DNA of 64,000 nucleotides, from IMG/VR virus record IMGVR_UViG_3300022848_000014, positions 1 through 64,000 of that record; one strand, given 5' to 3'. A model generated the notes under the pieces. It was given only the letters and a program-made list of their open reading frames with translations. It did no database searches and had not been told where the DNA came from. The position numbers were made by a program, and so were the translations under genes. Below are positions 35,216 through 64,000 of this stretch, one piece after another (position 1 is the first letter of the stretch; the number at the start of each line of letters is the position of its first letter). The stretch comes from a virus.

Positions 35216-36372
35216 AGGTTAAAGTCTAGTTTACTGACATTTCCCTTCAATTCCTTTTCGTCGAATTCTTCGCCAATTTTGGTGGTCATCATGTTGGATT
35301 TACCCATTCTTAAATATCCATCATCAAAGACTATTTCGCGCACCTGATTGTCTACCAATAAACCCATGAGTTCATTATATCGACGGTCTTGCATCTGCTT
35401 GATAACCTTGCCGTACTTTTTGGCTAATTCATATTGACGAAGCTTGGTGTAAGACTTAAATGTGCCTTTCATGTAAGAACGCTCACGCTGGAATTTACCA
35501 GATTTCCATCTTCTGTATGCCTCTGTGCTGTTCGGTCCTGGCTGAAGGTTGTCGATTGCCTCATAAAGCTTTGCGGCCTCAGAAACACGTCCTTTTGCCT
35601 CGGCTTGCCTTGCTTCCATAAAGAATCTACGGGCAGGTAACACGCGATTAAACCACCAATCTTTGGAAACTTCTATGATGATTTCAGCAAGTTCTTTATC
35701 ACGTTCATAATACCTGACGCTAAAGTGTTGACCAGCTTTCTTGATTGCAATCTCAGCATAATCAGATTCAGTTACCACCATTTGTTGATGAAGCTGAATC
35801 ACATATTGAGTAGGCATCCCAGTCTCATACCCTTTACCAGTGTACTCACCAATCGTTTTGATTTCTAAAGGTGCCGCCTTTAATAGTGGCTCTCCCGTGA
35901 TCATGTTTGCGGACCCAGGGGCAATAGCCATATCTAAACTTGAAAAAAGCCAAGGCATTTTTTGATTGACTAAGTAGTATTTAGTCTCAAGTGACTTTCT
36001 GATTAGGTACTGATCTAATTTACCTGAGTCAATCCATTTCTTGTGGTTGGCAATATAACCCTCAGGGGTTCCATCCCAAAATTGCCATACTTCACCAATA
36101 ATGGGTTCATCGGTATGGCCCCAGAATGTAAGTTGATTACTAAATTCTACTGGTGTCTCCCTGCCAATCTTATGCTCAAACATTTCAGCAGGAGATGGTG
36201 CGTATTCATTGATCGGTAGTCCCGTATCAACATCTTCAATAAGCTTTGCCATTTCTGAAGCACCAATACCCCCAGGGTAATCGGGTATGCCAGTTGTTCT
36301 AAATCTGAACCACTCAGGGCTATGTGCTTTTATAGCGAACTTGTGAAAATGATCTTCTGTAAATATTTCCAT
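35212..36372 (-). CDS. YqaJ-like (lambda exonuclease family) recombination nuclease
   Basis: EW...R...IGASE, WGH..EP, SLD, LEIKT, Y..QLHQQM. Confidence 0.88.
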   Translation of the reverse strand: MEIFTEDHFHKFAIKAHSPEWFRFRTTGIPDYPGGIGASEMAKLIEDVDTGLPINEYAPSPAEMFEHKIGRETPVEFSNQLTFWGHTDEPIIGEVWQFWDGTPEGYIANHKKWIDSGKLDQYLIRKSLETKYYLVNQKMPWLFSSLDMAIAPGSANMITGEPLLKAAPLEIKTIGEYTGKGYETGMPTQYVIQLHQQMVVTESDYAEIAIKKAGQHFSVRYYERDKELAEIIIEVSKDWWFNRVLPARRFFMEARQAEAKGRVSEAAKLYEAIDNLQPGPNSTEAYRRWKSGKFQRERSYMKGTFKSYTKLRQYELAKKYGKVIKQMQDRRYNELMGLLVDNQVREIVFDDGYLRMGKSNMMTTKIGEEFDEKELKGNVSKLDFNL

Positions 36373-39111: not shown

Positions 39112-39196
39112 CATATTTCTCCGTAAGTACTCCGAAAGACGTTGCTCAACAGTCGCTTAATGCCATTCGAAGAGAACGGCACGAAGCTTAGTGTTA
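39112..39196 (-). repeat. 85-bp inverted repeat, partner of 54783-54867
   Basis: Reverse complement matches 54783-54867 with 2 mismatches. Confidence 0.95.
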
Positions 39197-39199
39197 GCT
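39144..39199 (-). mobile_element. attC-like site E
   Basis: Minus strand AGCTAAC-ACTAAGCTTCGTGCCGTTC TCTTC GAATGGCATTAAGCGACT-GTTGAGC, imperfect palindrome. Confidence 0.7.
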
Positions 39200-39206
39200 G
39201 CAAGTG

Positions 39207-40040
39207 CTACGTTCCAGTTTTAATTGAAAGTTCGTACATATCAGCCGTAATAATATTTTTTTCTCCCACCCTCTCTTTTGAGATTTGATACATATCAAAA
39301 TCATTTTCAATGCCAATGTAGTTTCTTTTTGTTTCAAAACAAGAAAGTCCAGTTGTATTACTTCCGCAAGTATTATCAAGAACCCAATCATTTTCATTTG
39401 AGTAGGTTTTAACAAGGTATTTAATCAACTCCAGTGGTTTTTGAGTTGGATGTAATGCTGATTTTTGTTTATCAGTAGCAAAACTCAAAACACTTTTCGG
39501 GTATCGTTCTGTACTATCATAAGTTGTAAGCCCATGTTCACCATAGTTAGTAGTCTTTTTAGAGTTTCTTTTATGCTTTGCTGTGCTTACCTTTCTTTCG
39601 TGTCCAGTAGTCTTTTGTGGGTTATACGTTGGTAATCTCTTGTAGAATACCAGTATGTCTTCGTGGCTTCTCAATGGCATTCTTTTAGCGTTTAAGTGTC
39701 CTGTTGGGGTTGTTTTTTGCCAAATTAGATTATATCTATGTAGCTTCTCATTTGAGAGCATCAACCTTGCAGAAAATTTATCCTGTCCGAAAAGAACTAT
39801 TGCCCCATTTTTAACTATTATTCTTTCGTATTGCTCCCAAAGTAAATTCAAATCAATGAGTGAATCCCATTTATTCTTAGTTACACCATAAGGTAAATCA
39901 CAACAAATTAGGTTTATGCTTTGGTCGGGTATTTGTTTCATCATCTGAAGGCAGTCTCCAAACCAAAGAATGTTTTTGGTTTTTTCAAAACCATCTTTGC
40001 CACCGCTCAAAAAAATATTATTACTACGTTCGTTTTTCAT
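39207..40040 (-). CDS. DNA N6-adenine/N4-cytosine methyltransferase (beta class)
   Basis: GDCL..M, CDLPYG, HPTQKP, VLDNTCGS.TT, YIGIE. Confidence 0.92.
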   Translation of the reverse strand: MKNERSNNIFLSGGKDGFEKTKNILWFGDCLQMMKQIPDQSINLICCDLPYGVTKNKWDSLIDLNLLWEQYERIIVKNGAIVLFGQDKFSARLMLSNEKLHRYNLIWQKTTPTGHLNAKRMPLRSHEDILVFYKRLPTYNPQKTTGHERKVSTAKHKRNSKKTTNYGEHGLTTYDSTERYPKSVLSFATDKQKSALHPTQKPLELIKYLVKTYSNENDWVLDNTCGSNTTGLSCFETKRNYIGIENDFDMYQISKERVGEKNIITADMYELSIKTGT

Positions 40041-40073
40041 ATCAAAGTTTTGTGTTTAAAATCCGCACCAGTC

Positions 40074-40168
40074 AGCTAACATGGTATATAAAAAATAGCC
40101 TATTAAAGTTCGGTGTATAATATCAATGTTTGTGGTCAGGCTACTTTTCATATACCTGTCCGTTAGCA
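40074..40168 (-). mobile_element. attC-like site D
   Basis: TGCTAAC..GGTATATGAAAAGTAGCCT...AGGCTATTTTTTATATACC.T-GTTAGCT on the minus strand. Confidence 0.75.
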
Positions 40169-40178
40169 ACAATAAAAA

Positions 40179-40355
40179 TTATTCCTCCCACCAGTAAAGC
40201 ACCTTAAAGAAGCTCTTTATCATTTCAGGAACATCCCATTCATCACCTAACCAAGTGCTTTCCCCTTCACCATTGTTACAAGAAGGTGCATTGTTTTTTA
40301 TTCTGTATTTACCAACAGAAGTTGGTTGTCTTTCGTTTGTGCTTACCCAAGCCAT
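40179..40355 (-). CDS. 58-aa cassette protein (MAWVSTNERQP..., DUF551-like start)
   Basis: Single ORF filling the space between sites C and D. Confidence 0.6.
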   Translation of the reverse strand: MAWVSTNERQPTSVGKYRIKNNAPSCNNGEGESTWLGDEWDVPEMIKSFFKVLYWWEE

Positions 40356-40367
40356 AATTTTAAAAGT

Positions 40368-40461
40368 TGCTAACAAAAGCTATAAATAAAAGCCTTGTTA
40401 AGGTTTGTGTGTGAATTGAACTTTGTGTTGAAGGCTTCAATTCATAGCCTAGTCATTACCT
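40368..40461 (-). mobile_element. attC-like site C (AAT variant)
   Basis: AGGTAAT..GCTATGAATTGAAGCCTT...AAGGCTTTTATTTATAGC..GTTAGCA on the minus strand. Confidence 0.7.
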
Positions 40462-40469
40462 GCAAGTGC

Positions 40470-41609
40470 TTAGACTTGTGCTAAACTTGAAGATTCGTGC
40501 TTATCATCCCGTAATAATATTTTTTTTCTCCCCTCTTTTGATTCTGCTAATATTAGAGCTTTGAATATTTGAAATGCAACCTGGGGTACAATTGCATTTC
40601 CGTATGCTTTTATTGATTCTTGTCGCCATTTAGGAAAGGTAATTCCGTCCAGTTGGTTGGAAATCCCATCATTTCCGCTACAAATTGGGGATTGAGTTGG
40701 CCATCTACCATCATAGTAAGTCCAACTTGCTTTCCTTTCTCCAAACGATTCAGAACGCATTTGTCCTTTGGGTTTCCCCTGTTCCTGTTGTCGCTTGCAT
40801 TCGGTGTCGGCAACATTCCTTTTTGATTCCACTTCGCTACCGTTTCTTCCAAATTCCCTTTGTTCCTGTTTGCTAATTTCTCGCTGTTTAGATTGCATCC
40901 GTTTACTTGGTTCGCTCTCGGTGTCGGTATTAATCCCTGAGATATTTGATGTGATAATGTTGTTTGAACTTTCGTTCCGTCTTTCCTGTACCAAGAGGTT
41001 TCCTTCCAAATCCAACCTTTTTCTTTTGCTCTCTCTGGCGTTATGTTCGCCATTGGATTTGCGCTCGGTGTTGATAGCAATAAACCAGACCCTATCTCTT
41101 CTATGGGGAGCGTTGACGGCAGCAGCTGGAAGTACACACGGTTGTACTTTGTACCCTTCATTTTCCAAGTCAGCTTGCACCTCGTTGAAAACCAATCCGT
41201 CATTCCAACTAATGAGACCAGAAACATTTTCTGCCACAACATATTTGGGTTTAATCTCTCGAATTGCTCTAAGCATTTCTGGCCAGAGGTGTCGGTCATC
41301 TTCTTTACCAAGTCTTTTACCTGCTGAGCTGTAAGGTTGGCAGGGGAATCCTCCTGTGAGGATGTCAATTTTTCCTCTGTGAATAGAGAAGTCTGTTTTG
41401 GTAATGTCTTCATAAGATATTGCTTTAGGCCAGTAATGTTTTAGTATTCGTTGACCAAATTCGTTCCATTCGCAATGAAATACGTTTTCCCACCCCATCC
41501 ATTCAGCAGCTAAATCAAAGCCACCAATTCCAGAGAACAGAGAACCGTGTTTTAGGCTATCGCCTAATTTGCCATCGCTCAAAAAAATATTATTACTACG
41601 TTCAGTCAT
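40470..41609 (-). CDS. DNA C5-cytosine methyltransferase, large (alpha-like) chain
   Basis: LFSGIGGF, GGFPCQ, ENV, HRRDRVW, C-terminal YGNAIVPQ (motif X); motif IX absent. Confidence 0.92.
   Translation of the reverse strand: MTERSNNIFLSDGKLGDSLKHGSLFSGIGGFDLAAEWMGWENVFHCEWNEFGQRILKHYWPKAISYEDITKTDFSIHRGKIDILTGGFPCQPYSSAGKRLGKEDDRHLWPEMLRAIREIKPKYVVAENVSGLISWNDGLVFNEVQADLENEGYKVQPCVLPAAAVNAPHRRDRVWFIAINTERKSNGEHNARESKRKRLDLEGNLLVQERRNESSNNIITSNISGINTDTESEPSKRMQSKQREISKQEQREFGRNGSEVESKRNVADTECKRQQEQGKPKGQMRSESFGERKASWTYYDGRWPTQSPICSGNDGISNQLDGITFPKWRQESIKAYGNAIVPQVAFQIFKALILAESKEGRKKILLRDDKHESSSLAQV
40610..41413 (-). CDS. Nested out-of-frame C5-MTase small (beta-like) chain carrying motif IX
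   Basis: 267 aa alternative-frame ORF with three (L/I)(S/P)TP repeats and LNPQFVAEMMGFPTNWT. Confidence 0.7.
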   Translation of the reverse strand: MKTLPKQTSLFTEEKLTSSQEDSPANLTAQQVKDLVKKMTDTSGQKCLEQFERLNPNMLWQKMFLVSLVGMTDWFSTRCKLTWKMKGTKYNRVYFQLLPSTLPIEEIGSGLLLSTPSANPMANITPERAKEKGWIWKETSWYRKDGTKVQTTLSHQISQGLIPTPRANQVNGCNLNSEKLANRNKGNLEETVAKWNQKGMLPTPNASDNRNRGNPKDKCVLNRLEKGKQVGLTMMVDGQLNPQFVAEMMGFPTNWTELPFLNGDKNQ

Positions 41610-41644
41610 TTAATTAAAGTTTGTGTTTATTAATCGCACCAGTC

Positions 41645-41700
41645 AGGTAACACGCTATAAAAGCCATTGAAAAAACGGCTCTTATAGCTATTCGTTAGGC
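41645..41700 (-). mobile_element. attC-like site B
   Basis: GCCTAAC..GCTATAAGAGCCGTT TTTTC AATGGCTTTTATAGC.T-GTTACCT on the minus strand. Confidence 0.75.
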
Positions 41701-41716
41701 ACAATTAAAACAAACT

Positions 41717-42550
41717 TTATTGCATATTAATTTCGCTCTCCGTTTCGCTTCTTTTATCTAAGTCGTTTATCCCACACATACCATTACAATCAAACAATGG
41801 TTTAGGCTCTCTACCTTTCATCATACTAATATCTTTCATTTGTGGGTAGTCTTTATGTGGTTTTAGAAATACTAATCCACCGCCTTTACTTTGGTCTTTC
41901 AACATAGTTATTGGCTTACCTTTAACATTTGTTAGTTCATGCTCCATCGCTGCCATTTTATCAAATTTATCAGGAAAGTCTCTACTCATTTTCTGCCAAT
42001 ATCCAATTCCACCTTGTACGCATCCAGTCTTAAAACAATTGTTATTTAAGAACCCTAATTGATACATATTTGGAACTTCAATACTTGCATCTTGTACAAT
42101 CTTAATACAATCCTTTTTATTCAATCCATGCATCATTAAAGGAAATAAAGGTTTTGTTTGTGGATGGTTTAAAACCATCCCTTTTGCTCTCTTATATTCG
42201 TCAAGTTCAAACCCAAAAATTTGATGTTTCCATTCATTAGTCTTTTCCCACGTTTCACGTACTTGCCTTTTCATTTCAGAACTACATACAGCACCCTTAG
42301 CATTGTTCAGTGCTTTGTATCTTCGCCAAACTGCTTGAACGCTTTCGTGCTTTGTACTACTTATAGTCTCAATCTCTATGCCATACCAATCGGCACAGTC
42401 TTTCATAAATCGGTAAGTATCATCGTCTTCATTATGTGTATCAATAAAAATAATTCTTACATTTTCTTTACCATACAAATCAATTCCAATTTTACAAGCT
42501 ACCGCACTTGTAATTCCACCACTCCACCAGCCAATTATCTTATATTTCAT
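41717..42550 (-). CDS. PAPS-reductase-like PP-loop protein
   Basis: WWSGGITSAVAC PP-loop; C..E.KR..R, GF...E..R, Y.LGF.NNNC...GCV.GG.GYW. Confidence 0.75.
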   Translation of the reverse strand: MKYKIIGWWSGGITSAVACKIGIDLYGKENVRIIFIDTHNEDDDTYRFMKDCADWYGIEIETISSTKHESVQAVWRRYKALNNAKGAVCSSEMKRQVRETWEKTNEWKHQIFGFELDEYKRAKGMVLNHPQTKPLFPLMMHGLNKKDCIKIVQDASIEVPNMYQLGFLNNNCFKTGCVQGGIGYWQKMSRDFPDKFDKMAAMEHELTNVKGKPITMLKDQSKGGGLVFLKPHKDYPQMKDISMMKGREPKPLFDCNGMCGINDLDKRSETESEINMQ

Positions 42551-42951
42551 ATTGCAAATGATTTTAAATATTCCACACCATCTTCTAATGTGTCAAAAAC
42601 AATATCAGAAACCTGTGTTACAAAGGATAAGTAATTATCTTTTATTGTTTCGTGATTTGGTTCAAGTACAGTTATAACCGTTTTACCCAATCCTTTAGCA
42701 TAACCAGCCTCACAACATAAACCAATACAGCTCGTGTTTGTTTTTTCAATATAAACAAATAGTATATCACTTTGCTTTATAAAATGCAAATCCCATTTTC
42801 CGTACTCATTCACATTCATAATAACCCTTTCGTTATTCTTAAACTCTTTATCTTTTGGGTTAATCCATTCAATATTATCAGAACATTCTTTTACTTTATT
42901 AGCCCAATCGCTCTTAAAACCACCAGCTAAATATGTTTTTTGTTTTATCAT
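42547..42951 (-). CDS. Nucleoside 2-deoxyribosyltransferase-like protein
   Basis: YLAGG, NP, WDL..I..SD, G...E.GYA..LGK.V. Confidence 0.75.
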   Translation of the reverse strand: MIKQKTYLAGGFKSDWANKVKECSDNIEWINPKDKEFKNNERVIMNVNEYGKWDLHFIKQSDILFVYIEKTNTSCIGLCCEAGYAKGLGKTVITVLEPNHETIKDNYLSFVTQVSDIVFDTLEDGVEYLKSFAI

Positions 42952-42987
42952 TGTATATATTTTTCATATTTTATAATTAATAACTGT

Positions 42988-43118
42988 GCCTAACACGGTA
43001 TAAAAATAATAGCGGTTTTAGGTCTTTATTTAAGGTTAGTAATATTTATTTAATTCTGTTCTTAATCGTTTGGTTCGTGCGTTTCAATCCGCTACTATTC
43101 TTATACAACACGTTACCA
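42988..43118 (-). mobile_element. attC-like site A
   Basis: TGGTAAC..GTATAAGAATAGTAGCGG...CCGCTATTATTTTTATAC..GTTAGGC on the minus strand. Confidence 0.75.
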
Positions 43119-43128
43119 ACAATAAAAA

Positions 43129-43287
43129 TTACTCGTATTGGTCGCTGTCTTTTATCGTTTCAAGAGCACTAATCCTGTCTTGTAAAACTTTCTTCTCTCT
43201 CATTAATAACATTATATCTTCTTCCGCTTTTTTCAAATATAATTTAGTATCCTTTATTGCTGCATCAATTTTTGTCATTTTACTCAT
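43129..43287 (-). CDS. 52-aa coiled-coil protein directly upstream of site A
   Basis: Hand-translated MSKMTKIDAAIKDTK...DQYE; ATGA overlap with the upstream gene. Confidence 0.55.
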   Translation of the reverse strand: MSKMTKIDAAIKDTKLYLKKAEEDIMLLMREKKVLQDRISALETIKDSDQYE

Positions 43288-45889: not shown

Positions 45890-45940
45890 ATGTATAAAAA
45901 AACCCCCATCTGCTTAAGATGAGGGTCAAACCTAACACTA

Positions 45941-46372
45941 CTATGAAAAGTTATGCCAACCAGGATTAATGTGCAAGAAAGAACTTGACAATCCTGAATT
46001 GAATATCCTATTATAGTCTCCGGGGTCTATATGCGCTGAGGCTGTCTTGTCGGGTAGTTCCAGGGCAGGAGGATTTTCAATATTTAGGTTATAAGTCCAG
46101 TATCGACTTTCCCTTGAGTCTGCTTCATGCTTCAAGTAGCAATTACAATAGGAATACTCTAAGTCTTCCTCTAATGTAACGAACATGTCGCCAGCTTCAG
46201 GGAATAGAGTCATTTCCAGACTTGAATAGACACCGATAGTAAAATCGTTGTCAAGGGTCACATCAACTATGCTGATGTCAGGTGGGGCTTCTTCCACAGG
46301 GAATACCGTCGAGGCACTTGCGGAGAAAGAGAACACCAAGATGGCCATTAAGCCGAACAGTGTTTTTTTCAT
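45941..46372 (-). CDS. Secreted hypothetical protein
   Basis: Signal peptide MKKTLFGLMAILVFSFSASA. Confidence 0.6.
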   Translation of the reverse strand: MKKTLFGLMAILVFSFSASASTVFPVEEAPPDISIVDVTLDNDFTIGVYSSLEMTLFPEAGDMFVTLEEDLEYSYCNCYLKHEADSRESRYWTYNLNIENPPALELPDKTASAHIDPGDYNRIFNSGLSSSFLHINPGWHNFS

Positions 46373-46510
46373 CTTTTTGTTTTTAGTATAATAACATTTG
46401 ATTCCAAACATAGCCACAGATTTCGGTAAATCCTAATTAGTCTGATCTTCCGTTATTAACATTCATGCTGTTAATATCAGTCTAACAACTTTGTAATTGA
46501 CTGAAAATCA

Positions 46511-53015: not shown

Positions 53016-53240
53016 ATGAAAAACAATAAAATTATAAGCAGTTTTAAATATTGGGCAATCACTAGAAAATGGTTGTGGCAAAGAGTCGTTTTTGATAATG
53101 GTGTTGTTGGCAGAAACTATCACAGATATGACCATATCTTGTATTCTTATTGTCAAGGAATGGGTGATAATGGAGAGTATGGAGGTATTAATACCGTAAT
53201 AAAATTACAAGTGGAATCATCTATGCGTAATTGTGCCTAA
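53016..53240 (+). CDS. Hypothetical cassette-type protein; stop codon lies inside site F
   Basis: Ends TGT GCC TAA(C). Confidence 0.6.
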   Translation: MKNNKIISSFKYWAITRKWLWQRVVFDNGVVGRNYHRYDHILYSYCQGMGDNGEYGGINTVIKLQVESSMRNCA

Positions 53241-53297
53241 CGGTTTGTATATGAAATCGGCTGACGATAGGAAGCTGTTTTATATACCGTGTTAGCC
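53235..53297 (+). mobile_element. attC-like site F
   Basis: GCCTAAC-GGTTTGTATATGAAATCGGCT...AGCTGTTTTATATACCGT-GTTAGCC. Confidence 0.75.
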
Positions 53298-53335
53298 ATC
53301 TGGCTGTGGTAAATTAAGAACTAAAATTAAATAGA

Positions 53336-53980
53336 ATGAAAATATTAATAGCTTGTGAGGAGAGCCAAGAAGTTTGTAAGGCTTTCCGAGAAATAGGATT
53401 TGAGGCTTATAGTTGCGATATGCAAGAATGTAGTGGTGGTAAACCTGAATGGCATATTGTAGGTGATGCAGTTGTAGAAGCGTATAGTGGTAAATATGAC
53501 CTTATGATAGCGCACCCACCTTGCACTTATATTAGTAGAGCTGGTGCAAGATGGATGTACCCAACAGCAGGAAATTTAAGCCAAGAAAGATTTAATAAAG
53601 CAATGGAAGCGAAGGATTTGTTTATGAAATTATTGAACGCTCCTATACCTTATATTGCTGTTGAGAACCCAACATTGTTAAAAGTAGTTGGATTGCCTAA
53701 ACAAAGCCAAGCGGTGCAACCTTATGAATACGGACACCCTTATAGTAAAAGAACTCTGCTGTGGATTAAAAATTTACCACTATTAAGCCCAACCAAAATA
53801 GTAAGCGAATATAAGCCGTACTTACCAAGTAATACAGGGGGCAAAAAACGAGGGCAGAAATATCAATTTAAGAACATAAGCCAAAAGGAAAGCAGTAAAA
53901 CTTTTAGCGGAATTGCAAAAGCTATGGCTGAACAATGGGGAAACTTCATTAAAAGCGATAATGTAGCAGCTTGTGGCTAA
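53336..53980 (+). CDS. Phage DNA cytosine methyltransferase-like protein
   Basis: ILIACEES, SCD, IAHPPCT, ENP, K.TLLW...LP, SKTF.GIA.AMAEQWG; stop inside site G. Confidence 0.8.
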   Translation: MKILIACEESQEVCKAFREIGFEAYSCDMQECSGGKPEWHIVGDAVVEAYSGKYDLMIAHPPCTYISRAGARWMYPTAGNLSQERFNKAMEAKDLFMKLLNAPIPYIAVENPTLLKVVGLPKQSQAVQPYEYGHPYSKRTLLWIKNLPLLSPTKIVSEYKPYLPSNTGGKKRGQKYQFKNISQKESSKTFSGIAKAMAEQWGNFIKSDNVAACG

Positions 53981-54042
53981 CGTGTTGTATATGATTAAGC
54001 GATAGCGACCCTTTTTAGGGTTAATTATATACGGTGTTACCT
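53975..54042 (+). mobile_element. attC-like site G
   Basis: GGCTAAC-GTGTTGTATATGATTAA...TTAATTATATACGGT-GTTACCT. Confidence 0.75.
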
Positions 54043-54068
54043 GCAGTACGGATTATTAAAAACGAAAT

Positions 54069-54773
54069 ATGAAAAGAAACAAAATATATTTAGGGGATTG
54101 TTTAGAGTTGATGCCTAAACACGTAGAAGATAAAAGCGTTGATATGATTTTTTGCGATTTACCTTATGGAACAACACAAAACAAATGGGATAGCGTTATA
54201 CCTTTTGAGCCACTTTGGGAACAATATAAGAGAGTTATAAAAGATAATGGAGCTATTGTGTTATTTGGCTCACAACCTTTTACAAGTGCTTTAATTATGA
54301 GTGAACCTAAAATGTTTAAATACTCTTGGTATTGGTTAAAAAATAGAGCTACTGGAGTTTTAAACTCTAAAAAACAACCGTTAAGAAATATTGAAGAAAT
54401 TTGTGTTTTTAATATAAAGAAATATAACCCACAAGGATTGATTGAGGTGAACCAACCAAGTAGAAACAGCAAGAAAGATTACGATAACTATGGGAAAGGA
54501 ACTAGTAAACAATACACTCAAAAATACACAAACTACCCAAAGCAATTGATTGAGTTTAATAGCGTGCAAAGAACAACGCACCCAACAGAAAAGCCATTAG
54601 ATTTAATTGAATATATGATTAAGACTTACACAAATGAAGGTGATTTGATACTTGATAATACTTGTGGAAGTGGAACAACTGGAAGAGGAGCGAAGAACTT
54701 AAACAGAGATTATATTATGATGGAGCAAGAAGAGAAGTATTATGACATTGCTTGTAAAAGACTACTAACTTAG
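54069..54773 (+). CDS. DNA N6-adenine/N4-cytosine methyltransferase (beta class), paralogue of 39207-40040
   Basis: GDCLELM, CDLPYG, HPTEKP, ILDNTCGSGTT. Confidence 0.92.
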   Translation: MKRNKIYLGDCLELMPKHVEDKSVDMIFCDLPYGTTQNKWDSVIPFEPLWEQYKRVIKDNGAIVLFGSQPFTSALIMSEPKMFKYSWYWLKNRATGVLNSKKQPLRNIEEICVFNIKKYNPQGLIEVNQPSRNSKKDYDNYGKGTSKQYTQKYTNYPKQLIEFNSVQRTTHPTEKPLDLIEYMIKTYTNEGDLILDNTCGSGTTGRGAKNLNRDYIMMEQEEKYYDIACKRLLT

Positions 54774-54779
54774 TATTGC

Positions 54780-54835
54780 AGGTAACACTAAGCTTCGTGC
54801 CGTTCTCTTCGAATGGCATTAAGCGACTGTTTAGC
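54780..54835 (+). mobile_element. attC-like site H (same body as site E)
   Basis: AGGTAAC-ACTAAGCTTCGTGCCGTTC...GAATGGCATTAAGCGACT-GTTTAGC. Confidence 0.7.
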
Positions 54836-54867
54836 ACCGTCTTTCGGAGTACTTACGGAGAAATATG
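54783..54867 (+). repeat. 85-bp inverted repeat, partner of 39112-39196
   Basis: 83/85 identity to the reverse complement. Confidence 0.95.
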
Positions 54868-55641: not shown

Positions 55642-56000
55642 TGGAATTCTGGTTTTTCGGTTTTTCGTATTGTCTTAATATCATTCACAAACTCACTATC
55701 TAATCCTACCCCTTCACCATCTGGATCGGTGAAGTAGTCAGTGACTAATGGGAAGAACCTCTTAAGCATGTACCAAGCGCCCATTAAGACGATTGAGAAC
55801 ACACCGATACCCGCCAGAGACGACATTAGGTACCTCATTGATATTGCTGGCATTTCATCCGGGCCAAAAATGTACCCAAGGCCGTACAACCCCCCATATA
55901 CAATTCCAACCCACACTAGGATATTAATAACGTCTTTCCCCATTACCAGGGACCAAGCTTTCTTGATCAATTTAATTGATTTACTTTTTTGCATTTTCAT
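55557..56000 (-). CDS. Holin-like membrane protein
   Basis: Three hydrophobic segments; overlaps the lysin start. Confidence 0.55.
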   Translation of the reverse strand: MKMQKSKSIKLIKKAWSLVMGKDVINILVWVGIVYGGLYGLGYIFGPDEMPAISMRYLMSSLAGIGVFSIVLMGAWYMLKRFFPLVTDYFTDPDGEGVGLDSEFVNDIKTIRKTEKPEFQCFRRPLFFLSIYAFFVLCAAAMIAAIL

Positions 56001-59000
56001 CTTTCATTTTTTGAATTGATAAATCTCGTTTGGCTTTACGCTCTTCGTCTCTTATTTTTTTTGCTGCAGCTCTTTCTAGTGCAACTTTAACTCCAGGCCC
56101 CTTTTCAAGAGCTAGTTCCCATGTTTTCTGTGTAATGTCTACCTCATACTTTTTAGCCATCATATCCTCTAAAGCTTTTTGGGCTGTTCGATTAATTCCT
56201 GGCTTATCAGGATTAACCACTTCCTTAAGATATGAGTAGTGAACTAATTTTTGTTCTTTCTCAGTGATCCTTTCTTGTGGGATTTTCTCGATGTAGTTGT
56301 AGAGGGTCATTGTATATCGATAAGTCTCGTCGTCTAGGTCTTCAACAAACCTACGGACTAAAGGCATTTGGTTCACACTTCCCTCTTTATCAAAAGTAGC
56401 TATGCGAACTGCTTCTTGGGCTATACCCCCAAAAACCTCATTCATTATGTAGTCAAAAGTCTCTGGACTAATACTCACACCCATTTTGTCATAGAGTTGT
56501 TGGGCACCCTCTATGTAGGCTTCATTTGTACTTTTATGGTAAATCTCATGATCAGCCTTTCCAATAGTAAATTTCGGATAAATTGGACTCATCTTATAAT
56601 CTTTATTCATGGAGACCTCAGCACTTTGGGAAGCAAGTACTGGCAAAAAGGCACTTACCCAGTTAGCTTGGTTCCCACTCACAGGGTCAACCACCATTTG
56701 TACCGAATGCAATTGATTAAAGAAAGCTCTGGCTGGTGTGATCCTGCCAGATTGAAGGTCATAAGCAGCTTCACCCATTGACATAAATAGTCTTAGGAAA
56801 GAATAGGATTTCGGAATCTTGAAGGGCTTTGTTGGTTCAACTGGATTATAGATGTAAGTGTTCTGAGTCCAGTCCATCGGTGATTCGGTCATCATTTTTA
56901 GCTCATCCTCTTCATCCATCATGCTGTAGAGTAGCATTTTGTTTAGGTAGGCAAATGAGGCTGCTGCTGCCAGAGCTTTTCTACCAGACTTTGACTTGAG
57001 TAATTGCCCAGTCTTGGCCACACCCTGTATTCCTGCATTAAGGAAAAGGTACATGCTATTGAGAATAGTCATTTGAGACCCTTTTTTCTCAAAGTTTAGG
57101 GATATGTTTTTAGCGGCTCCCGCAGCCTGTTGTGGGGATAACCCTGCATCCCTGAGTGATGCATATACGGCTAGTCTGTTGGACATCTCAAAAACCTCAT
57201 TGATTCCTAAGGCTGTGTCCATCATGGCGTGAAGCGTCTCTTTGGCCATGTTTGTCCCTTTGTTTGCTTTAGACTTCTCACCAAGTTTTTTTAAGCTGTC
57301 AACCTGATCTTGTATCTGGCCATAGTTAGCCCATGACATGTACATCCCTTCAGCCCTTGCCTCACTCAGATATTGCATCATGTCACCCCCTTGGTCTGTG
57401 GCACCAAAGTAGTTTTTAGCAATTGTGGGTCCAGCAATACGAAGGTTTGCTAGATATGCACGTCGAATTCCCTTTAAGTCATATCGATCTTTTTCCACTC
57501 CTAAGTTTGCAAGGACATCCTGTGTATCACGAGCAAAGTTGGGAACACCAAAGAATATGTTAAGGGATGTTATGAGAGACCGTTGGAAATTAGTCATTGC
57601 CCCAAAACCTTTGATAATTTTGCCCTCCCACTTTCCTGTCTTTCGATTACTTGGGATAAGCGCATTATAGAGTCCTTCATGCCTAACCTCAAGATAAACG
57701 ATTTTACCCCCGGGCATACGAACCTTTACTGAGTTCGTTTTCACATTGTCAGGAACAAGGTCATTGTAAGAGATTATGTCTCCCGTATCTGGATCGATGT
57801 CAGGTATTCCTCTTGCGGTATGCACTTTCCATACTGAAGGATCGGCATTTTGACGAGCAAGTTCCACGAGCGCTCTATTGGCATTATTCTTCTCTACTTT
57901 CTCAATGGTTTTGGCCAGGTTTACTACCGCTTGATTTAATGGGTCATAGACTTGCTCTGAAGTATATGAGCCCCTTCCTTCAGCGGCCAGGATGTCAGGA
58001 GAAGTGCTACCACCTTTTTTCTTTGACTTTGAGTTAAAGAATGCAGGGTCAATAACAACGGGCATGTAGTTTGACCATTCAATATCTGATCCTGTTTTAT
58101 CCCCATTTAGTAGGGCTTGGTATTGCTTTTCGTCGATGAAATCGTTTTCATAGAGTATATCAAGATTCTTTTCCAAAACTTCCTCCCTGAATTCTTGGGC
58201 AAACTCATCTAGGTCTTTACGCTTTCCATCATAGCTATCTAATATGGCCTGTGCGTCTTTATCGCTCATTCTGGCTCCTTCCTCTACAATTCGATATAAT
58301 TCCACCTCATTGTTCTCGATAGCCTCAATTTGGGCAGCGTAGAACTGTTGTCCTCTTGTGGTTTCAGCATTTTCCATCTTAGCAGTTAGTTGAGCAACTT
58401 TTTCTTCCTGCTTCTTGATTGACATATCCCTGAGTCTTGCATTACGCTCAGGAACGTGAAGGGCGTACATGAATTGGGAAAGGTCTGTGAGTGTTAATCC
58501 CTTCTTTTTCATTCTTCCATTAAGGGAAGCTTTGTTCTGCTTTCTCTTTTCAAATACGGTGCTTCTGCCTGATATTTGGAAAGTGGTACCAGGGTCCGCG
58601 CCATAAATATAGGTCTTGAGTGCATCGATTTGTTCTGCAGTCTTTGATCTAACAAGCTCTCGTTTCGTGTAAGCATTAAGTGCGTCTGGTAAGTTTTTAC
58701 CCTTAAGCTTCTCGATAGACTGTTGAATTTTCTTAAGCCATATATCCCCATCTTGGAAAGCTTGCCTGAAGCTGGTAAACGTTTCAAAGCCTTCTGTTTT
58801 AGATAGGGGTATTGTCATGCCAGATTCATTCAGAAAATCAATTTCCCTTTGAACCCTTCCCATTAGGACATCGGCCAATTTCTCATCCATGCCTAGTTTA
58901 TCTACGACAAACCTCGTGATTGCTGCAGGGTCAGCGCCTCCTTGCATGGCCATTACGATTGAAGCTCGAATCTTCATGAAGTCCCTTGACATGTTGACTG

Positions 59001-62000
59001 TCATAAACTCCTTGTAAAGGTTCTCATTACGAAGCTTACCATCAAACATTGCTCTCAAGTGAGGGGAAAGCGCCTGATTCATGGTAAGCTCTTCAGCCAC
59101 TTTTTGGGTAAATCCCTCTAGTGTCAAGTTCTCAATTTCCTTGGCATTCAATTTACCAGACCACATACCAGAGGCTATGAGGGGCTTAGTAAATTGATTG
59201 AATGCTGTGCTTAAGAACTTGCGAAATTTCTTTCTGAAGTTGTCGGGCTGCTTATCAACCTCTAAAGCTTTATCGGCTATGGCATCAGTCAACGCATCTA
59301 AGTATGGGTTCCTAGACTTCCTTTTTTTGGCTTCTGCCAAATACTTTGTGCCTTCCATCATTTCCTTCACTTGATGAAGTAACTCAGGTCGGTTTTGCAT
59401 TGCTGGGAGTATCCATGCTTTTGCAAAAGTCTTGAAAGTTTCCTTTGGGGTGATTGTGGCAGGATTGAAGTAGATGTTCCCATCCATGCTCACAATTACT
59501 TGTTGCCCCGCATATTCATCTCCGAGTGCTTCAACTTGCTCTTTGAATTCTGAGAAGTCAAATGAAACTTTTAGTCCAGGGAATGCTTTACCCAGTGCAG
59601 TTGCAATCTTGGACGCATATCTGGTATTGGCCTCAGTTGACTCTTGCGTGTCTGGGAGTGTTACCGATTGCATATCGATACCTTCGAAAGCCTGTATAAC
59701 TTGATCCCCCAATAGATCCCCAAAAGTCATCACGGCCATTGCCTCTGCACCGTTGTATCCTTCAGCTTCTAAAGCCGCAATGATTTCCTCATTAGTAAAC
59801 CCTTGTGATTGCAGCAATTCTATAATGGCCTTAATCTCTGCGTGTTCATTAAATCCTACTTGGAAGAGGGGTTTGCTCTCAGCCTCGACTTTATCAATTT
59901 CAACATTACGATCATCAAATACGACATAATTTGCGTCGGTGTATTCCTTATTCCGTGGTTTTGGTATACCCATGGAGAGTGTTCCAACAGGATAGCGGAT
60001 GCCATCGATTCCTTTATGGGTCAACCTCATTGATGCTTGTTGTGGACTCATGTATTTAGTGAGCGTAAAATACAAGAAAGCTCCACTAAAGAGATCCGCA
60101 TCAGTTAAGAGCTCGACTAATTTATCAGTGTCATTATCAAGATCGTATTGCTCGTTAAAATGCTCCATGAGCACCTCATGTAAATCTGGTTCAGCAGCGT
60201 ATGTTTTCCCATCATTTGTGTCAAAATAAATTTCGTAACCTAGTGCCTCATAATCACCTTGCTCTGAATTGCTTACATCAACAGCTACACTGTTTGGGTC
60301 TGGTACTTCTAATATTCTACGAAGTTGATCTTCTGGCAGTGCGTTTTTCCATTCTAGGTACTCGTATTCACTTGGTTCTTTCCCTTTATGAATGGTAGTA
60401 TGATAAACTTGGCCACCACCAATTGTCCATGGCTTAACCTCTCCGCTTTTTATTAGTGGAACAATTTTGGCAAAGGCAGCAGCTTTTTTATGTGTGGAGC
60501 TTTCTTTATTTGGATCATTCTTAGCCCCTTCAGCCCACTTCTTCTCAAAGTATTCTGCCCTCTTAATGTAATCGGCCTTGAGTCTAGGGGATGCATTCAT
60601 GAGGTTTGATTCAAACACCTGATCTAAAGCCTCTCTCTCGTTATAATCAAAATCTAAAGGATCTCCGTCTTTTGATTTGATTTCCCAATTTTTAGTGTCT
60701 TGAATTTTTCGTGAGAGTGTTGTAGCATAATCCTGGGCTATTTCTTTTTTACTTGTGAAATAGAGGCCATAGCCAAAAGCTTGAGCACCCTCACCAGTCC
60801 CAATCTTATCTGAGTTGAACTTATCAAATAAAAATGGTGTTCCGTGATATGCTCTGACTTCTTGGCTGGTCCCTTGATTTCCAAAAAGGATTATTTGTTC
60901 TTCTCTTGATATTGGTGATCCATCCCCATAATTTTCAGTCGCAGATGGTGGGGTTTCCTTTCGTTGTCGAGGACTCATTGCAGCCCTGTTCTGTACGTTT
61001 CTAGCCTCAGTCTCTCCCGCTAGTGATTGGTATAGCTTGTGAGCCACATCACTAGGGACTCTTTTAGAAATTATTGCTGTTTTCTCTGAGGTTAATTCTT
61101 CGGATTTGAGTGTTTCAATTTCAGCTAGTAAAAAATCACGTCTACCATCAAGTGTTTCTAAAGCTTCTTGTAACACTAAACTTACGGGCTTACCTAAGTT
61201 CGCATCTTCGCTCTGAGAACTGAAATACATTAATTCAGTTGATGCATCATAGGAGCCTAATTTCTCAGTCCCAAAGTTACCTTGTATAAGAGCATTAAGA
61301 TTGTCTTTAGCTACCCTTTCCTCTCTTTGAAGTTTCTGAATTTCATCCGTTAAATATCCATTTTCATCAGGTCTTTCTTTTTTATTCAGGTCATACAGTT
61401 CTTCTGTCTCTTTCTTTTTTTGCCTAAAAAGAAGTGTCAGATCAGAAAGTTCATTTCTAAACGCTTCATCAGTCTGAAATTTATTAAGAACATCCTGAGT
61501 AACCTTTTTGCTATCAGATACATCTAGCAGGTCTTTTCTGGTTGCAGTGATTGCAGACGTAGAAAGTTCATTTTGCTTGCTTGCAGGTAGAGATGCTATG
61601 ACTGATTGTGGATTGCCTCCCATAGCAAAACCTTCAATCATTTGAATAGCGTGTTGCAGTTCGTGTATGAAGGTCGATCCCTTGTCTTGAGCGTATGGAG
61701 TTACTTGAAGCACTTTTGTTTCAGAGTTGTAAGACCCCTGAAGCCCCCCGAAATCCATGAAGCCACCTTTTTTTGATATTTTAATATCAAGAAGAGCTGG
61801 GTAAAGCTTGAATATTTCTTCGTATGGACTAATGACTTCGGTTATTGAAACTGTTTCAGTACCAAAAAGTTTCTGTGTAGCGAGAGCTTCAAACGCTTCA
61901 GTATTGAACATTGGTGGTTGTACTTCATACTTCCACTTTCCGTCAGTACCTCTTGCCCATCCTGTTAATCCACGAATGTATTCTGCACCATCTTTAATTC

Positions 62001-64000
62001 CTGGGTTTAGGTTGTTCTCTAATAATTGCGCCCGGCCTAACTTCTCCTTGACTTCATTATTCAGATTAGCATTTGAACCCACAAACTGGAATAAGGCTTT
62101 CCCATTTGGAGATAGACTATTTGGGTCTATTGGACCACCTTCTTCAGGTGTTAGTTTCACACCTAGCTCTTGCCCTCCCAGTAGATCGAATATAGCTCCA
62201 TCTAGGAATTCATCGAGGGTCATCTTGTCAATGGATTCTGTCTTTTGCATGAAGAAGGTTTCACCCAAATATGCTTTCATCTTCTCGATCCAGGCAGTGA
62301 ACTTATCTACCATGGCCTTTGAGCCTAGTGCCTTACTTAAGTTCTTGGCACCCCTCATCCCGATCGCTTGTACTAAAGCCTCATCTCGTTTCTCGTATTC
62401 AGTTAGGTGTGCATAGGCAGGATTGTTCTTGATCTCTTGGAATATGGCAGTTTCCTTCATCAACTGATTGGCCTCATTGTAAAGGTCATAGTTGGTGGCC
62501 TTCATGTGCTCAATGTAGATGTGGGCAAACTCATGTATGGCAGTATCCCTAGTTGCTGCTTGTGGGTTTATGTAGACTTTTCCGTTCCAATAAAACCCTT
62601 TGACTTTGTTGGTGTCCACGGGTATTCCCATCTCCGCAGACACTTTGGCTGCTGCTTCATTAAACGCTTCTTGATCATAAACCACTGGAACCTTAATTGC
62701 CTCAAGTAATTGCTTGATGGAGTTCCCTATGAATTCGGAAACACCTTTGCGCCTGGTCTTAATTACATCGGTAGCAGCCTTAGTTCGTACTTGGAAAGGA
62801 GTGTCTGGAACTGGTTCATTTGCCTTTGCTTCAGCTTTTTTAGCATCGTCCTTTTTGATTTGGGCCTGGGCACTTAGTTTGTTGAATTTTTTCCCAGTGA
62901 GTTCCCCCATTAATTCATCAATGGCAACTTGCCCAGGTGTTCGGCTAATTCCATTAGGATTGGCAATCATAAAGTCCACGATGTCATTACCGTCTACCTG
63001 AACAGCTTCGGTACCCGTGTCCCCTTCTCCTTCTGAGATATTGTCAGCTAGTTTTGCAATATCTGAAACTATTTTTTCCCCTTTCTTGGCAAACCATGTT
63101 TTCGCAAGGTTGAAAGTGATGTTTGTCGCATTGCTGTTTCTGATAAAGTCTTCTCTCGATATAGAGTTCTTGCCTAAGTTCTCAGATATGAGTCTATCCA
63201 TTTGGCTCAGACTTGATTGCTGAAGAGTCTGATCCATGTATGCCTCAGAAAGACTTGTTTTAATCTCGTCTAAAATCGTATCATATTGATCGCGGATTTT
63301 GTCAGACATTTCCTGTAAGTGGGCTTCTGTGTTGCCAGGGTCTTTTATAATCTTCTGCTCTGTTTCGTACTGAATATCTTGCATTATTTGACTTGGAACA
63401 ATCTCTTGGCTCCCGAATATCTCATCCTTGATACGTTGTACAACATCAAATATCTTTTTGACTGCTTCAGTAGACTTGGGCGGTGCTGGCTGGCGTTTGG
63501 CATTTTTACCCCTCTTAGTCTTTACCACTTTAGCTTTAGGGGCTTTAGTGGATGAGAGTCCTTCCGATAAAGCTTCAGTAGATTTTTCTAGGTTTCCTCC
63601 CTTGACTGCTTTTGTGACTTTTTCTGCAATTGGGTTTTTGTCAGTCTTACCTTCAGTTTGAACAGGCTTGTCGGGCTTTGGATCACCATCAGTTTTAGTG
63701 TCAGCTTTGTTCTCGACTTTTCCATCTGTTTTCTTTTTTGCCTCTAGTAAGGGAGAAATTAGTTTGTCATACTTCTGGTAAATCGCATCAAACTTCTTCT
63801 TGTCAGAATCCGAAAGTTTAGATCGATCTACTTTACCGTCTACCCTTGCTTCATCTATGTTTGGAATGGCTTCGGATAGTTCGGTTTGCTCTTCTGCTCG
63901 AAGTGTTTCTACCTTTTTTGTTACTTCTTCTTGCTCCCGTACTTCGGTGTCGGTTTCGGCTTTATTGTCTTTTTTACTTGGTAGGTCTTTTTTACTGGCT
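55981..64000 (-). CDS. Giant polyvalent (ejected/internal virion) protein: zincin metallopeptidases, LPD23-like, ADP-ribosyltransferase-like and C-terminal LPD38-like domains; 5' end beyond the window
   Basis: Frame stays open from 63528 to the window edge; HEFAH, TGW..G.DGKWKYE, HELQH...LAGE.EARNV, YHG...F....IGTGEG.QAFG.GLYF, NF.KKG.......LFLNA.IQG motifs. Confidence 0.8.
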   Translation of the reverse strand, partial: ASKKDLPSKKDNKAETDTEVREQEEVTKKVETLRAEEQTELSEAIPNIDEARVDGKVDRSKLSDSDKKKFDAIYQKYDKLISPLLEAKKKTDGKVENKADTKTDGDPKPDKPVQTEGKTDKNPIAEKVTKAVKGGNLEKSTEALSEGLSSTKAPKAKVVKTKRGKNAKRQPAPPKSTEAVKKIFDVVQRIKDEIFGSQEIVPSQIMQDIQYETEQKIIKDPGNTEAHLQEMSDKIRDQYDTILDEIKTSLSEAYMDQTLQQSSLSQMDRLISENLGKNSISREDFIRNSNATNITFNLAKTWFAKKGEKIVSDIAKLADNISEGEGDTGTEAVQVDGNDIVDFMIANPNGISRTPGQVAIDELMGELTGKKFNKLSAQAQIKKDDAKKAEAKANEPVPDTPFQVRTKAATDVIKTRRKGVSEFIGNSIKQLLEAIKVPVVYDQEAFNEAAAKVSAEMGIPVDTNKVKGFYWNGKVYINPQAATRDTAIHEFAHIYIEHMKATNYDLYNEANQLMKETAIFQEIKNNPAYAHLTEYEKRDEALVQAIGMRGAKNLSKALGSKAMVDKFTAWIEKMKAYLGETFFMQKTESIDKMTLDEFLDGAIFDLLGGQELGVKLTPEEGGPIDPNSLSPNGKALFQFVGSNANLNNEVKEKLGRAQLLENNLNPGIKDGAEYIRGLTGWARGTDGKWKYEVQPPMFNTEAFEALATQKLFGTETVSITEVISPYEEIFKLYPALLDIKISKKGGFMDFGGLQGSYNSETKVLQVTPYAQDKGSTFIHELQHAIQMIEGFAMGGNPQSVIASLPASKQNELSTSAITATRKDLLDVSDSKKVTQDVLNKFQTDEAFRNELSDLTLLFRQKKKETEELYDLNKKERPDENGYLTDEIQKLQREERVAKDNLNALIQGNFGTEKLGSYDASTELMYFSSQSEDANLGKPVSLVLQEALETLDGRRDFLLAEIETLKSEELTSEKTAIISKRVPSDVAHKLYQSLAGETEARNVQNRAAMSPRQRKETPPSATENYGDGSPISREEQIILFGNQGTSQEVRAYHGTPFLFDKFNSDKIGTGEGAQAFGYGLYFTSKKEIAQDYATTLSRKIQDTKNWEIKSKDGDPLDFDYNEREALDQVFESNLMNASPRLKADYIKRAEYFEKKWAEGAKNDPNKESSTHKKAAAFAKIVPLIKSGEVKPWTIGGGQVYHTTIHKGKEPSEYEYLEWKNALPEDQLRRILEVPDPNSVAVDVSNSEQGDYEALGYEIYFDTNDGKTYAAEPDLHEVLMEHFNEQYDLDNDTDKLVELLTDADLFSGAFLYFTLTKYMSPQQASMRLTHKGIDGIRYPVGTLSMGIPKPRNKEYTDANYVVFDDRNVEIDKVEAESKPLFQVGFNEHAEIKAIIELLQSQGFTNEEIIAALEAEGYNGAEAMAVMTFGDLLGDQVIQAFEGIDMQSVTLPDTQESTEANTRYASKIATALGKAFPGLKVSFDFSEFKEQVEALGDEYAGQQVIVSMDGNIYFNPATITPKETFKTFAKAWILPAMQNRPELLHQVKEMMEGTKYLAEAKKRKSRNPYLDALTDAIADKALEVDKQPDNFRKKFRKFLSTAFNQFTKPLIASGMWSGKLNAKEIENLTLEGFTQKVAEELTMNQALSPHLRAMFDGKLRNENLYKEFMTVNMSRDFMKIRASIVMAMQGGADPAAITRFVVDKLGMDEKLADVLMGRVQREIDFLNESGMTIPLSKTEGFETFTSFRQAFQDGDIWLKKIQQSIEKLKGKNLPDALNAYTKRELVRSKTAEQIDALKTYIYGADPGTTFQISGRSTVFEKRKQNKASLNGRMKKKGLTLTDLSQFMYALHVPERNARLRDMSIKKQEEKVAQLTAKMENAETTRGQQFYAAQIEAIENNEVELYRIVEEGARMSDKDAQAILDSYDGKRKDLDEFAQEFREEVLEKNLDILYENDFIDEKQYQALLNGDKTGSDIEWSNYMPVVIDPAFFNSKSKKKGGSTSPDILAAEGRGSYTSEQVYDPLNQAVVNLAKTIEKVEKNNANRALVELARQNADPSVWKVHTARGIPDIDPDTGDIISYNDLVPDNVKTNSVKVRMPGGKIVYLEVRHEGLYNALIPSNRKTGKWEGKIIKGFGAMTNFQRSLITSLNIFFGVPNFARDTQDVLANLGVEKDRYDLKGIRRAYLANLRIAGPTIAKNYFGATDQGGDMMQYLSEARAEGMYMSWANYGQIQDQVDSLKKLGEKSKANKGTNMAKETLHAMMDTALGINEVFEMSNRLAVYASLRDAGLSPQQAAGAAKNISLNFEKKGSQMTILNSMYLFLNAGIQGVAKTGQLLKSKSGRKALAAAASFAYLNKMLLYSMMDEEDELKMMTESPMDWTQNTYIYNPVEPTKPFKIPKSYSFLRLFMSMGEAAYDLQSGRITPARAFFNQLHSVQMVVDPVSGNQANWVSAFLPVLASQSAEVSMNKDYKMSPIYPKFTIGKADHEIYHKSTNEAYIEGAQQLYDKMGVSISPETFDYIMNEVFGGIAQEAVRIATFDKEGSVNQMPLVRRFVEDLDDETYRYTMTLYNYIEKIPQERITEKEQKLVHYSYLKEVVNPDKPGINRTAQKALEDMMAKKYEVDITQKTWELALEKGPGVKVALERAAAKKIRDEERKAKRDLSIQKMKDENAKK

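Follow-up and report, generated by a model that had tools for sequence, protein, structure and literature searches.

Two hairpin-bounded gene arrays in a phage genome

The stretch of DNA analysed here (the window) comprises bases 1-64000 of IMG/VR record IMGVR_UViG_3300022848_000014, a 73,733-bp viral record with direct terminal repeats, and carries two arrays in which short hairpin sites alternate with genes, mostly for DNA modification, in an arrangement resembling integron gene cassettes. Array 1 lies on the minus strand (39144-43118), where five polar hairpin sites (A-E) divide four gene units, while array 2 lies on the plus strand (53235-54835) and holds sites F-H together with two more methyltransferases. 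Read in the direction of transcription, array 1 opens with site A (42988-43118, 131 nt with a long loop), followed by a two-gene unit (41717-42951) in which an NDT-like gene (42547-42951, Pfam PF15891) overlaps a PAPS-reductase-like gene (41717-42550, PF01507), site B (a 56-nt hairpin at 41645-41700), a C5 cytosine DNA methyltransferase gene (40470-41609, PF00145, 4.9e-51), site C (40368-40461), an open reading frame (ORF) of 58 amino acids (40179-40355) with no family match, site D (a 95-nt hairpin at 40074-40168), an N6/N4 DNA methyltransferase gene (39207-40040, PF01555, 2.4e-27) and, at its end, site E (39144-39199), all on the minus strand. Array 2 runs, on the plus strand, from site F (53235-53297) through the gene for a 214-aa DNA methyltransferase (53336-53980), site G (53975-54042) and the gene for a 234-aa N6/N4 methyltransferase (54069-54773) to site H (54780-54835, with flank to 54867), its PHROGs matches being phrog_757 and phrog_67.

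An earlier interpretation of this DNA, made from the letters alone (the sequence-only reading), had proposed array 1 as an integron-like cassette array, and we found the coordinates, starts and ends of its five imperfect palindromes to be exact and the genes between them to be as it described. It had placed the array inside the replication operon, and the flanks consist of replication and recombination genes (primase/helicase-like, RecE-like and RecT-like genes and a weak replication-initiator match). Its description of the units as AT-rich was borne out for the array overall (35.9% G+C versus 40-41% in the flanks) and failed for the C5 methyltransferase gene (41.6%). A megablast search against GenBank phages yielded no close relative of the phage, and a 328-aa backbone protein had no relative in IMG/VR; we therefore compared the locus at the level of cassettes rather than as a whole.

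Sites A-E each begin with a TAAC box (TAAT in C) right behind a stop codon and end with at least GTT, and A-D share (G/C)TAT(A/G)...TATA(G/C) arms around variable loops, with C being a degenerate member (TAAT head, GGCTATG...TATAGC arms). In array 2, the stop codon of the upstream ORF is the TAA of the site's own box (CCTAAC, GGCTAAC; 53230-53241, 53970-53981). Of the integron consensus RYYYAAC/GTTRRRY invoked earlier, the conserved part is only TAAC/GTTA, which is (nearly) invariant: the full R-box consensus fits the head of B (GCCTAAC) and the tail of A (GTTAGGC), and it does not fit TGGTAAC, AGGTAAT or GTTACCT. The proposed cassette architecture stood in its clustering of sites and, as described below, in its complementary ends, and in the sequence of the box it agreed with the consensus in part.

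Sites E and H are of a hairpin type distinct from A-D and terminate the two arrays. Together with about 40 nt of conserved flank, site E forms an element (39112-39203, minus strand) that is 96.7% identical over 92 nt to 54776-54867 at the end of array 2, where H is its near-copy with a different head. This E/H element was absent from all other contigs fetched, and the genome holds no partner head for the E tail. The final ATG of the element was considered as the start of a lost recombinase gene, for which no support was found.

The sites belong to one polar, covarying family

Using a two-arm pattern drawn from the sites, we searched IMG/VR and a genome collection, and from an alignment of 70 sites on other contigs, none of them from the window, we built a covariance model termed R1. 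In the consensus layout, a 4-bp outer box (TAAC/GTTA) encloses an 11-bp stem with a variable loop; the unpaired spacer between box and stem is asymmetric, with G plus 4-5 nt on one side and 2 nt plus T opposite. All six stem pairs that the search pattern had left free showed double-sided changes (145 cells versus 57±6 in shuffled alignments, reached in 0 of 500 shuffles), and 94.8% of stem cells were paired, compared to at most 56% when the two sides were slid against each other; at one position of the stem, 37 of the 70 sites have a G.T mismatch. These covarying stems bear out the expectation that the sites fold as attC-like hairpins.

Run unfiltered over the 64-kb window, R1 found only F (50.4 bits), B (48.3 bits), G (45.7 bits), A (40.9 bits, E 1.1e-6) and D (39.0 bits), that is, five sites at 39-50 bits with E ≤ 3e-6 for B, A and D, whereas the reverse orientation scored 12-13 bits. 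From these matches and the low reverse score we conclude that the sites are genuine, have a polarity and point the same way as the genes. Single-strand folding was better than in shuffled sequences for B (z -3.44), D (z -4.35), E (z -2.72) and G (z -2.9). A genome-wide fold scan that demanded the terminal AAC/GTT to be paired in the minimum-energy fold missed A-D, because an internal loop parts the box from the stem. A second occurrence of GCGTGTTACCTG, near 35645, lies inside the RecE-like gene without a hairpin and was dismissed as chance. A lone 3'-side half-match, TAGTAGTGTTAGG, occurs at 45931-45943 on the minus strand, right behind the stop codon of the ORF at 45941-46417; it has no 5' arm, and a G+C-rich hairpin with a run of T follows it.

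Complementary ends follow the order of the units

Across the arrays, the bases past the GTT of one site (its tail) are complementary to the bases before the AAC of the next site (its head). When six heads were assigned to six tails in the phage, the real order was the unique best of the 720 assignments, and the head and tail of the same site were complementary over 0-6 nt only. The tail of site A, GTTAGGCACAG, is complementary to the head of B, the tail of B pairs with the head of C, and the tail of C pairs with the head of D over 21 nt at 86%, so that the degenerate site C was placed by this rule. In array 2, the rule holds from F to G and from G to H. The two methyltransferase units of array 1 have related ends in which the distinguishing bases covary (GTTACC with GGTAA; GTTAGC with GCTAA). 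The head of site A has no partner tail anywhere in the genome, which marks A as the array boundary. One 14-nt head, TAATTGTGCCTAAC, is common to the PAPS-like cassette of array 1 and to the end of the ORF before site F.

The same relation was found outside this phage. In 63 adjacent site pairs from other viral contigs, the mean complementary run was 3.84 compared to 1.50±0.14 after shuffling (0 of 5000 shuffles), and a bacterial array in Rufibacter glacialis, described below, obeys the rule as well, with the fourth base covarying too (GTTG with CAAC). Complementary unit ends are the footprint to be expected of a form in which the two ends are paired, as in integron cassette circles.

Bacteroidota carry the same sites beside a tyrosine recombinase

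The pattern matched more than 119 viral contigs and more than 120 genome contigs. Among the matches listed, the genome contigs were almost all from Bacteroidota, with Ignavibacteria in addition; the viral sites neighboured N6/N4 methyltransferases at 42 loci and C5 methyltransferases at 14 loci, and the bacterial sites neighboured diverse accessory genes. Viral arrays reach at least nine sites. In Rufibacter glacialis we counted at least 23 sites, 0.5-1.2 kb apart with one small ORF per unit, all with the uniform, species-specific loop palindrome GGCCGTCGGCC; whole-genome counts of this kind are lower bounds, as scoring covered 150 candidates per genome out of more than 1000. This array is split over at least five contigs (among them L242:831-5646, L244:119-3775 and L241:15697-17840), and one of its ends lies just downstream of a tyrosine recombinase gene that points into the array (L241:15697-17154).

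Upon fetching 80 related recombinase loci, we obtained 24 R1 hits in 13 of them, all downstream of the recombinase gene and all on the strand opposite to it; many of the contigs stop shortly past the gene. The recombinase aligned to the integron-integrase model TIGR02249 as two segments, with about positions 181-240 left out between them, and its score was below the cut-off. It likewise matched structure 2a3v in two stretches and was equally close to IntI4 and to the structures of XerA and XerD. Among NCBIfam models, the recombinases matched NF040815 ('XerA_Arch / integron integrase') best, below cut-off in all but one locus (L218). Two viral contigs (L005 and L057) encode a member of their own, 26-42% identical to the bacterial ones, with a start codon about 45-55 nt past the TAAC of the last cassette. 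The suggestion that the phage draws on a cassette-recombination system of Bacteroidota was supported: the sites occur in their chromosomes in arrays downstream of a recombinase, and the linked tyrosine recombinase that had been called for was found in bacteria, as an enzyme of Xer-like rather than IntI type.

Polarity and breakpoints

With the sites read from TAACG to TGTTA, gene and site shared a strand in 188 of 192 viral cases; among bacterial cases, the gene was on the strand opposite to the site in 164 of 182, again among the matches listed. The bacterial arrays therefore have the classical layout, an ORF followed by its site, while the phage cassettes are antisense to the integron convention.

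Breakpoints between related contigs fall at the box. The C5 methyltransferase unit recurs in contig L036 with 85.6% identity across 1267 nt (window 41710-40456). This homology extends from site B across the gene and stops exactly at GCAGGTAA|C/T, beyond which L036 is unrelated. E and H have hairpin and flank in common and differ in their heads, and in the Polaribacter phage P12002L, two arrays are alike in everything after TAAC. More generally, the ends of high-scoring segment pairs were about 11-fold enriched at sites. Between sites on different contigs, the core shared with its tail was identical in 6% of pairs and within two mismatches in 10.6%, compared to 0% and 0.7% for the core shared with its head. 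These data point to a crossover at TAA|C in the head as read on the phage coding strand, which corresponds to G|TT on the complementary one, a choice of box that we would hold provisionally given that the evidence is mixed. If the breakpoints lie at TAA|C, a gene would travel with the hairpin upstream of it and not with the downstream one, which would put E and H at the position where attI would be.

Cassette content varies among relatives and in salt lakes

The arrays differ in content between relatives, as would be expected of exchangeable units and in accordance with the prediction that gene order between sites is not invariant and that gains and losses break at the AAC/GTT boundaries. Besides L036, whose homology ends at the box, the PAPS-like gene stands alone as a cassette in contig L250, flanked by a matching head and tail of its own, and lies inside an ordinary operon without sites in contig L249; L250 also carries an A-like hairpin, 81.6% identical, joined to another gene.

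All public sequencing runs that contain this DNA are salt-lake metagenomes. We read variation from the contigs of four runs (X5-X8) that hold part of the locus. One 889-nt contig matched exactly 39193-40081 without a mismatch, that is, the tail, the N6 methyltransferase gene and the head, and another zero-mismatch contig (40161-40457) consisted of the C core and tail, the 58-aa gene and the D head. Several alternative continuations leave the locus at sites, at 39146, 39193, 41648 (of three to four kinds) and 41698. The summed contig depth was 10-30 over the cassettes (39136-41805; locally, bin means reached up to about 80) compared to 3-7 over the backbone, which suggests that the cassettes, or the methyltransferase cores, are also present in other genomes of the community. 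Contig joints at 39206>40161 and 40375>43017 (88% likeness, with short sides or unknown inserts) are weak hints. As the data are contigs, they display alternative contexts of the cassettes and not recombination events or circles.

A probable integron-like array, its recombinase presumably supplied from elsewhere

We interpret the locus as an integron-like gene-cassette array whose sites belong to a family common to Bacteroidota chromosomes and their phages, with the recombinase supplied from elsewhere, and give this reading a probability of roughly 0.7. The cassettes, mostly DNA-modification genes, probably protect the phage DNA from host restriction. In the mechanism that we envisage, a recombinase from the host or from a co-infecting phage would act in the infected cell, a source in trans being plausible because host genomes carry such an enzyme. 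It would bind sites folded from single-stranded DNA and exchange strands at the AAC/GTT box, so that cassettes might leave in circular form and enter at a different site or at the terminal E/H element; for the C5 methyltransferase, the junction of such a circle would be expected to read GCAGGTAA-C-core-GTTACCTGACTGG (head, hairpin core, own tail). Exchange of this kind could let the phage renew its anti-restriction genes. We infer the single-stranded substrate, the circular intermediate, the recombinase acting here, the choice between the two boxes for cutting and the role of E/H as the primary (attI-like) site.

A wider picture is held more tentatively, as something that may well turn out otherwise: Bacteroidota and their phages would share one cassette pool, served by a Xer-derived recombinase that came to behave like an integron integrase without the IntI insertion. 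The phages would keep their cassettes in a polarity opposite to that in bacteria, would have an attI-like entry point in a terminal element specific to phages (here E/H), and would borrow the recombinase in trans during infection, renewing their anti-restriction methyltransferases.

Several observations weigh against an active array of this kind. Neither the window nor the remainder of the 73.7-kb record contains an integrase, as had been noted for the window before; more broadly, no tyrosine or serine recombinase, or remnant of one, was found across the record, so that we can only infer activity of the sites in this phage. The link between the family and the Xer-like recombinase is drawn from gene neighbourhood only. 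Sites C, E and H were not matched by R1, the box of C being mutated to TAAT, and A and C taken alone fold no better than shuffled sequences (z -0.06 and -1.35), which we attribute to their long loops. The data on the side of the crossover are mixed: most site pairs that share a tail have different cores, an A-like core was found with three different tails, and one metagenome contig ends between the core and the tail of D. Finally, neither an excised circle nor a recombination event was observed in the contig data.

Relation to known integrons and rival explanations

Much of what we describe agrees with classical integrons and with clusters of attC sites lacking an integrase (CALINs): there too, mostly single-gene cassettes stand between imperfect palindromes of 55-135 nt built of an AAC/GTT box, spacer, stem and loop, the start of a cassette is complementary to its own end, and a cluster may be without an integrase. 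The family departs from classical integrons in its linked recombinase, which is without the IntI insertion, in its R-box, reduced to TAAC/GTTA, and in the antisense orientation of the phage genes. Sedentary chromosomal integrons have uniform attC sites, such as the Vibrio repeats, and an intI gene that diverges from the array. The bacterial arrays of the present family resemble them in being long, in their small single-ORF cassettes, in having near-uniform sites per species and in breaking assemblies, and differ in that the Xer-like recombinase faces the array and shares the strand of the cassette genes, and in their host phylum, Bacteroidota. Integrons with XerA-like integrases have reportedly been found in Archaea, and NF040815 as the best NCBIfam match of our recombinases is a point of likeness to these; the hosts, Bacteroidota and their phages, and the scores, mostly below cut-off, set the present family apart.

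Phage-borne clusters are themselves not new, which answers in part the earlier question of whether such arrays have been described. Qi et al. 2023 (PMC9892861) reported integrase-less attC clusters in virulent phages, including P12002L, with methyltransferases as recurrent cargo, and proposed that a host IntI acts on these phage CALINs. Their clusters and ours share the DNA methyltransferase cargo, and P12002L in fact carries the same site family with the same head/tail rule. Its two arrays share a terminal element: both end (L240, 29166-29247 and 37200-37304) in the same non-hairpin element, which starts right after TAAC. This duplicated terminal element parallels E/H in the present phage. 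Of the two attC sites that Qi et al. 2023 (PMC9892861) called in P12002L, attC1 is a hairpin of our family and attC2 corresponds, in reverse complement, to the terminal element common to both arrays; two of at least seven junctions were called.

These data bear directly on the most serious alternative, that the locus is an ordinary classical CALIN and a substrate of a true host IntI. Its attC-array architecture and the two attC calls in a phage with the same site family speak for it, as does the recombination of attC2, the terminal element, by IntI1; attC1, the family hairpin, was by contrast the only one of six sites without verifiable IntI1 recombination (Qi et al. 2023, PMC9892861). Further, the IntI insertion is missing from the recombinase adjoining the arrays, whose score stays under the integron-integrase cut-off, only TAAC/GTTA remains of the R-box consensus, and IntegronFinder 2.0 names a complete integron among Bacteroidetes proper only in Salinibacter ruber, yet the present sites are common in the phylum. 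Taken together, we consider a classical CALIN unlikely.

Quite improbable, too, is a fossil array, assembled in an ancestor, inert here and retained merely through inheritance or for a structural role in RNA or DNA. The missing recombinase and the mutated box of site C, outside the reach of R1, speak for it, but A, B, D, F and G retain high R1 scores and intact boxes, contigs from the source lakes diverge exactly at site boundaries with cassettes deeper than backbone, and a trans-acting recombinase is plausible from the host genomes.

The hairpins might instead be regulatory elements, such as terminators or RNA-processing signals, with shuffling by homologous recombination between the repeats. 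T4-type phages carry promoter-plus-stem-loop repeats (PeSLs), whose mode of action is taken to be homologous recombination, and, as with these, repeated intergenic stem-loops here flank phage accessory genes and coincide with gene-shuffling boundaries. The sites are indeed intergenic, conserved and co-oriented with genes, and their few core types could support homologous exchange. Such exchange does not, however, create complementary unit ends, and the L036 homology stops at TAA|C rather than inside the repeat. None of the sites showed a terminator-like signal when the coding strand was examined, promoter-like matches were not enriched (10 found, 14.8 expected), no Rfam family matches them, and in bacteria, where the sites are tied to a tyrosine recombinase, their polarity is inverted. 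We therefore regard a regulatory origin as very unlikely. That the units are small transposon-like elements with terminal inverted repeats (GTTA.../...TAAC), inserted between pre-existing hairpins, is scarcely credible, for although the unit ends are inverted repeats of 8-21 nt, extending as an imperfect repeat to about 75 nt in the two methyltransferase units, the units contain no transposase (Pfam) and no target-site duplications, the hairpins between them form one conserved, polar, covarying family, and in bacteria this layout goes together with a tyrosine recombinase at the array end. The regulatory-hairpin, transposon-like and classical-IntI explanations thus fit the data less well than an integron-like system of Xer type.

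Implications

Integrons are regarded as rare in Bacteroidota and as defined by the IntI insertion. The sites described here suggest that this phylum has an integron-like system which is common, has been overlooked and works with a simpler, Xer-type enzyme. They further suggest that lytic phages participate in the system by keeping a stock of interchangeable DNA-modification genes. If true, this would provide a route to fast turnover of anti-restriction genes in the arms race between phage and host, and it bears on the origin of integrons, that is, on whether recombination of folded sites requires the IntI insertion. For annotation, the two junctions called in P12002L out of at least seven illustrate that current attC tools miss most such sites. 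Phage CALINs with methyltransferases are known, and the locus is a further member of an integron variant that is little described, if at all: we found no publication on a non-IntI site family, its Xer-like recombinase or the inversion of polarity, within an incomplete coverage of the literature. The present locus is a clean example without a recombinase: its terminal element is duplicated across two arrays, and its sites vary within the populations of the source lakes.

Further features of the array genes

The C5 and N6 methyltransferase genes of array 1 have unrelated cores and are alike over about 75 nt at both ends (within 39193-41651). The similarity takes in the opening codons (ERSNNIFLS), the closing codons and, within the coding sequence, a perfect 16-nt inverted repeat with copies at 39247-39262, 40009-40024, 40511-40526 and 41581-41596. 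For each unit, pairing between its two ends is possible at -21 to -23 kcal/mol compared to -9±1.9 kcal/mol in shuffles. Contig L036 carries the same methyltransferase shell, and in P12002L a similar stretch occurs upstream of gp38, where the DNA is non-coding.

Upstream of site A lies a 52-aa ORF (43129-43287, minus strand) with no site upstream of it. Its 3' end resembles that of the 58-aa cassette (43111-43134 versus 40161-40184, 92%). Beyond array 2, a minus-strand ORF of more than 2500 aa occupies 55981-63999 and continues past the end of the window.

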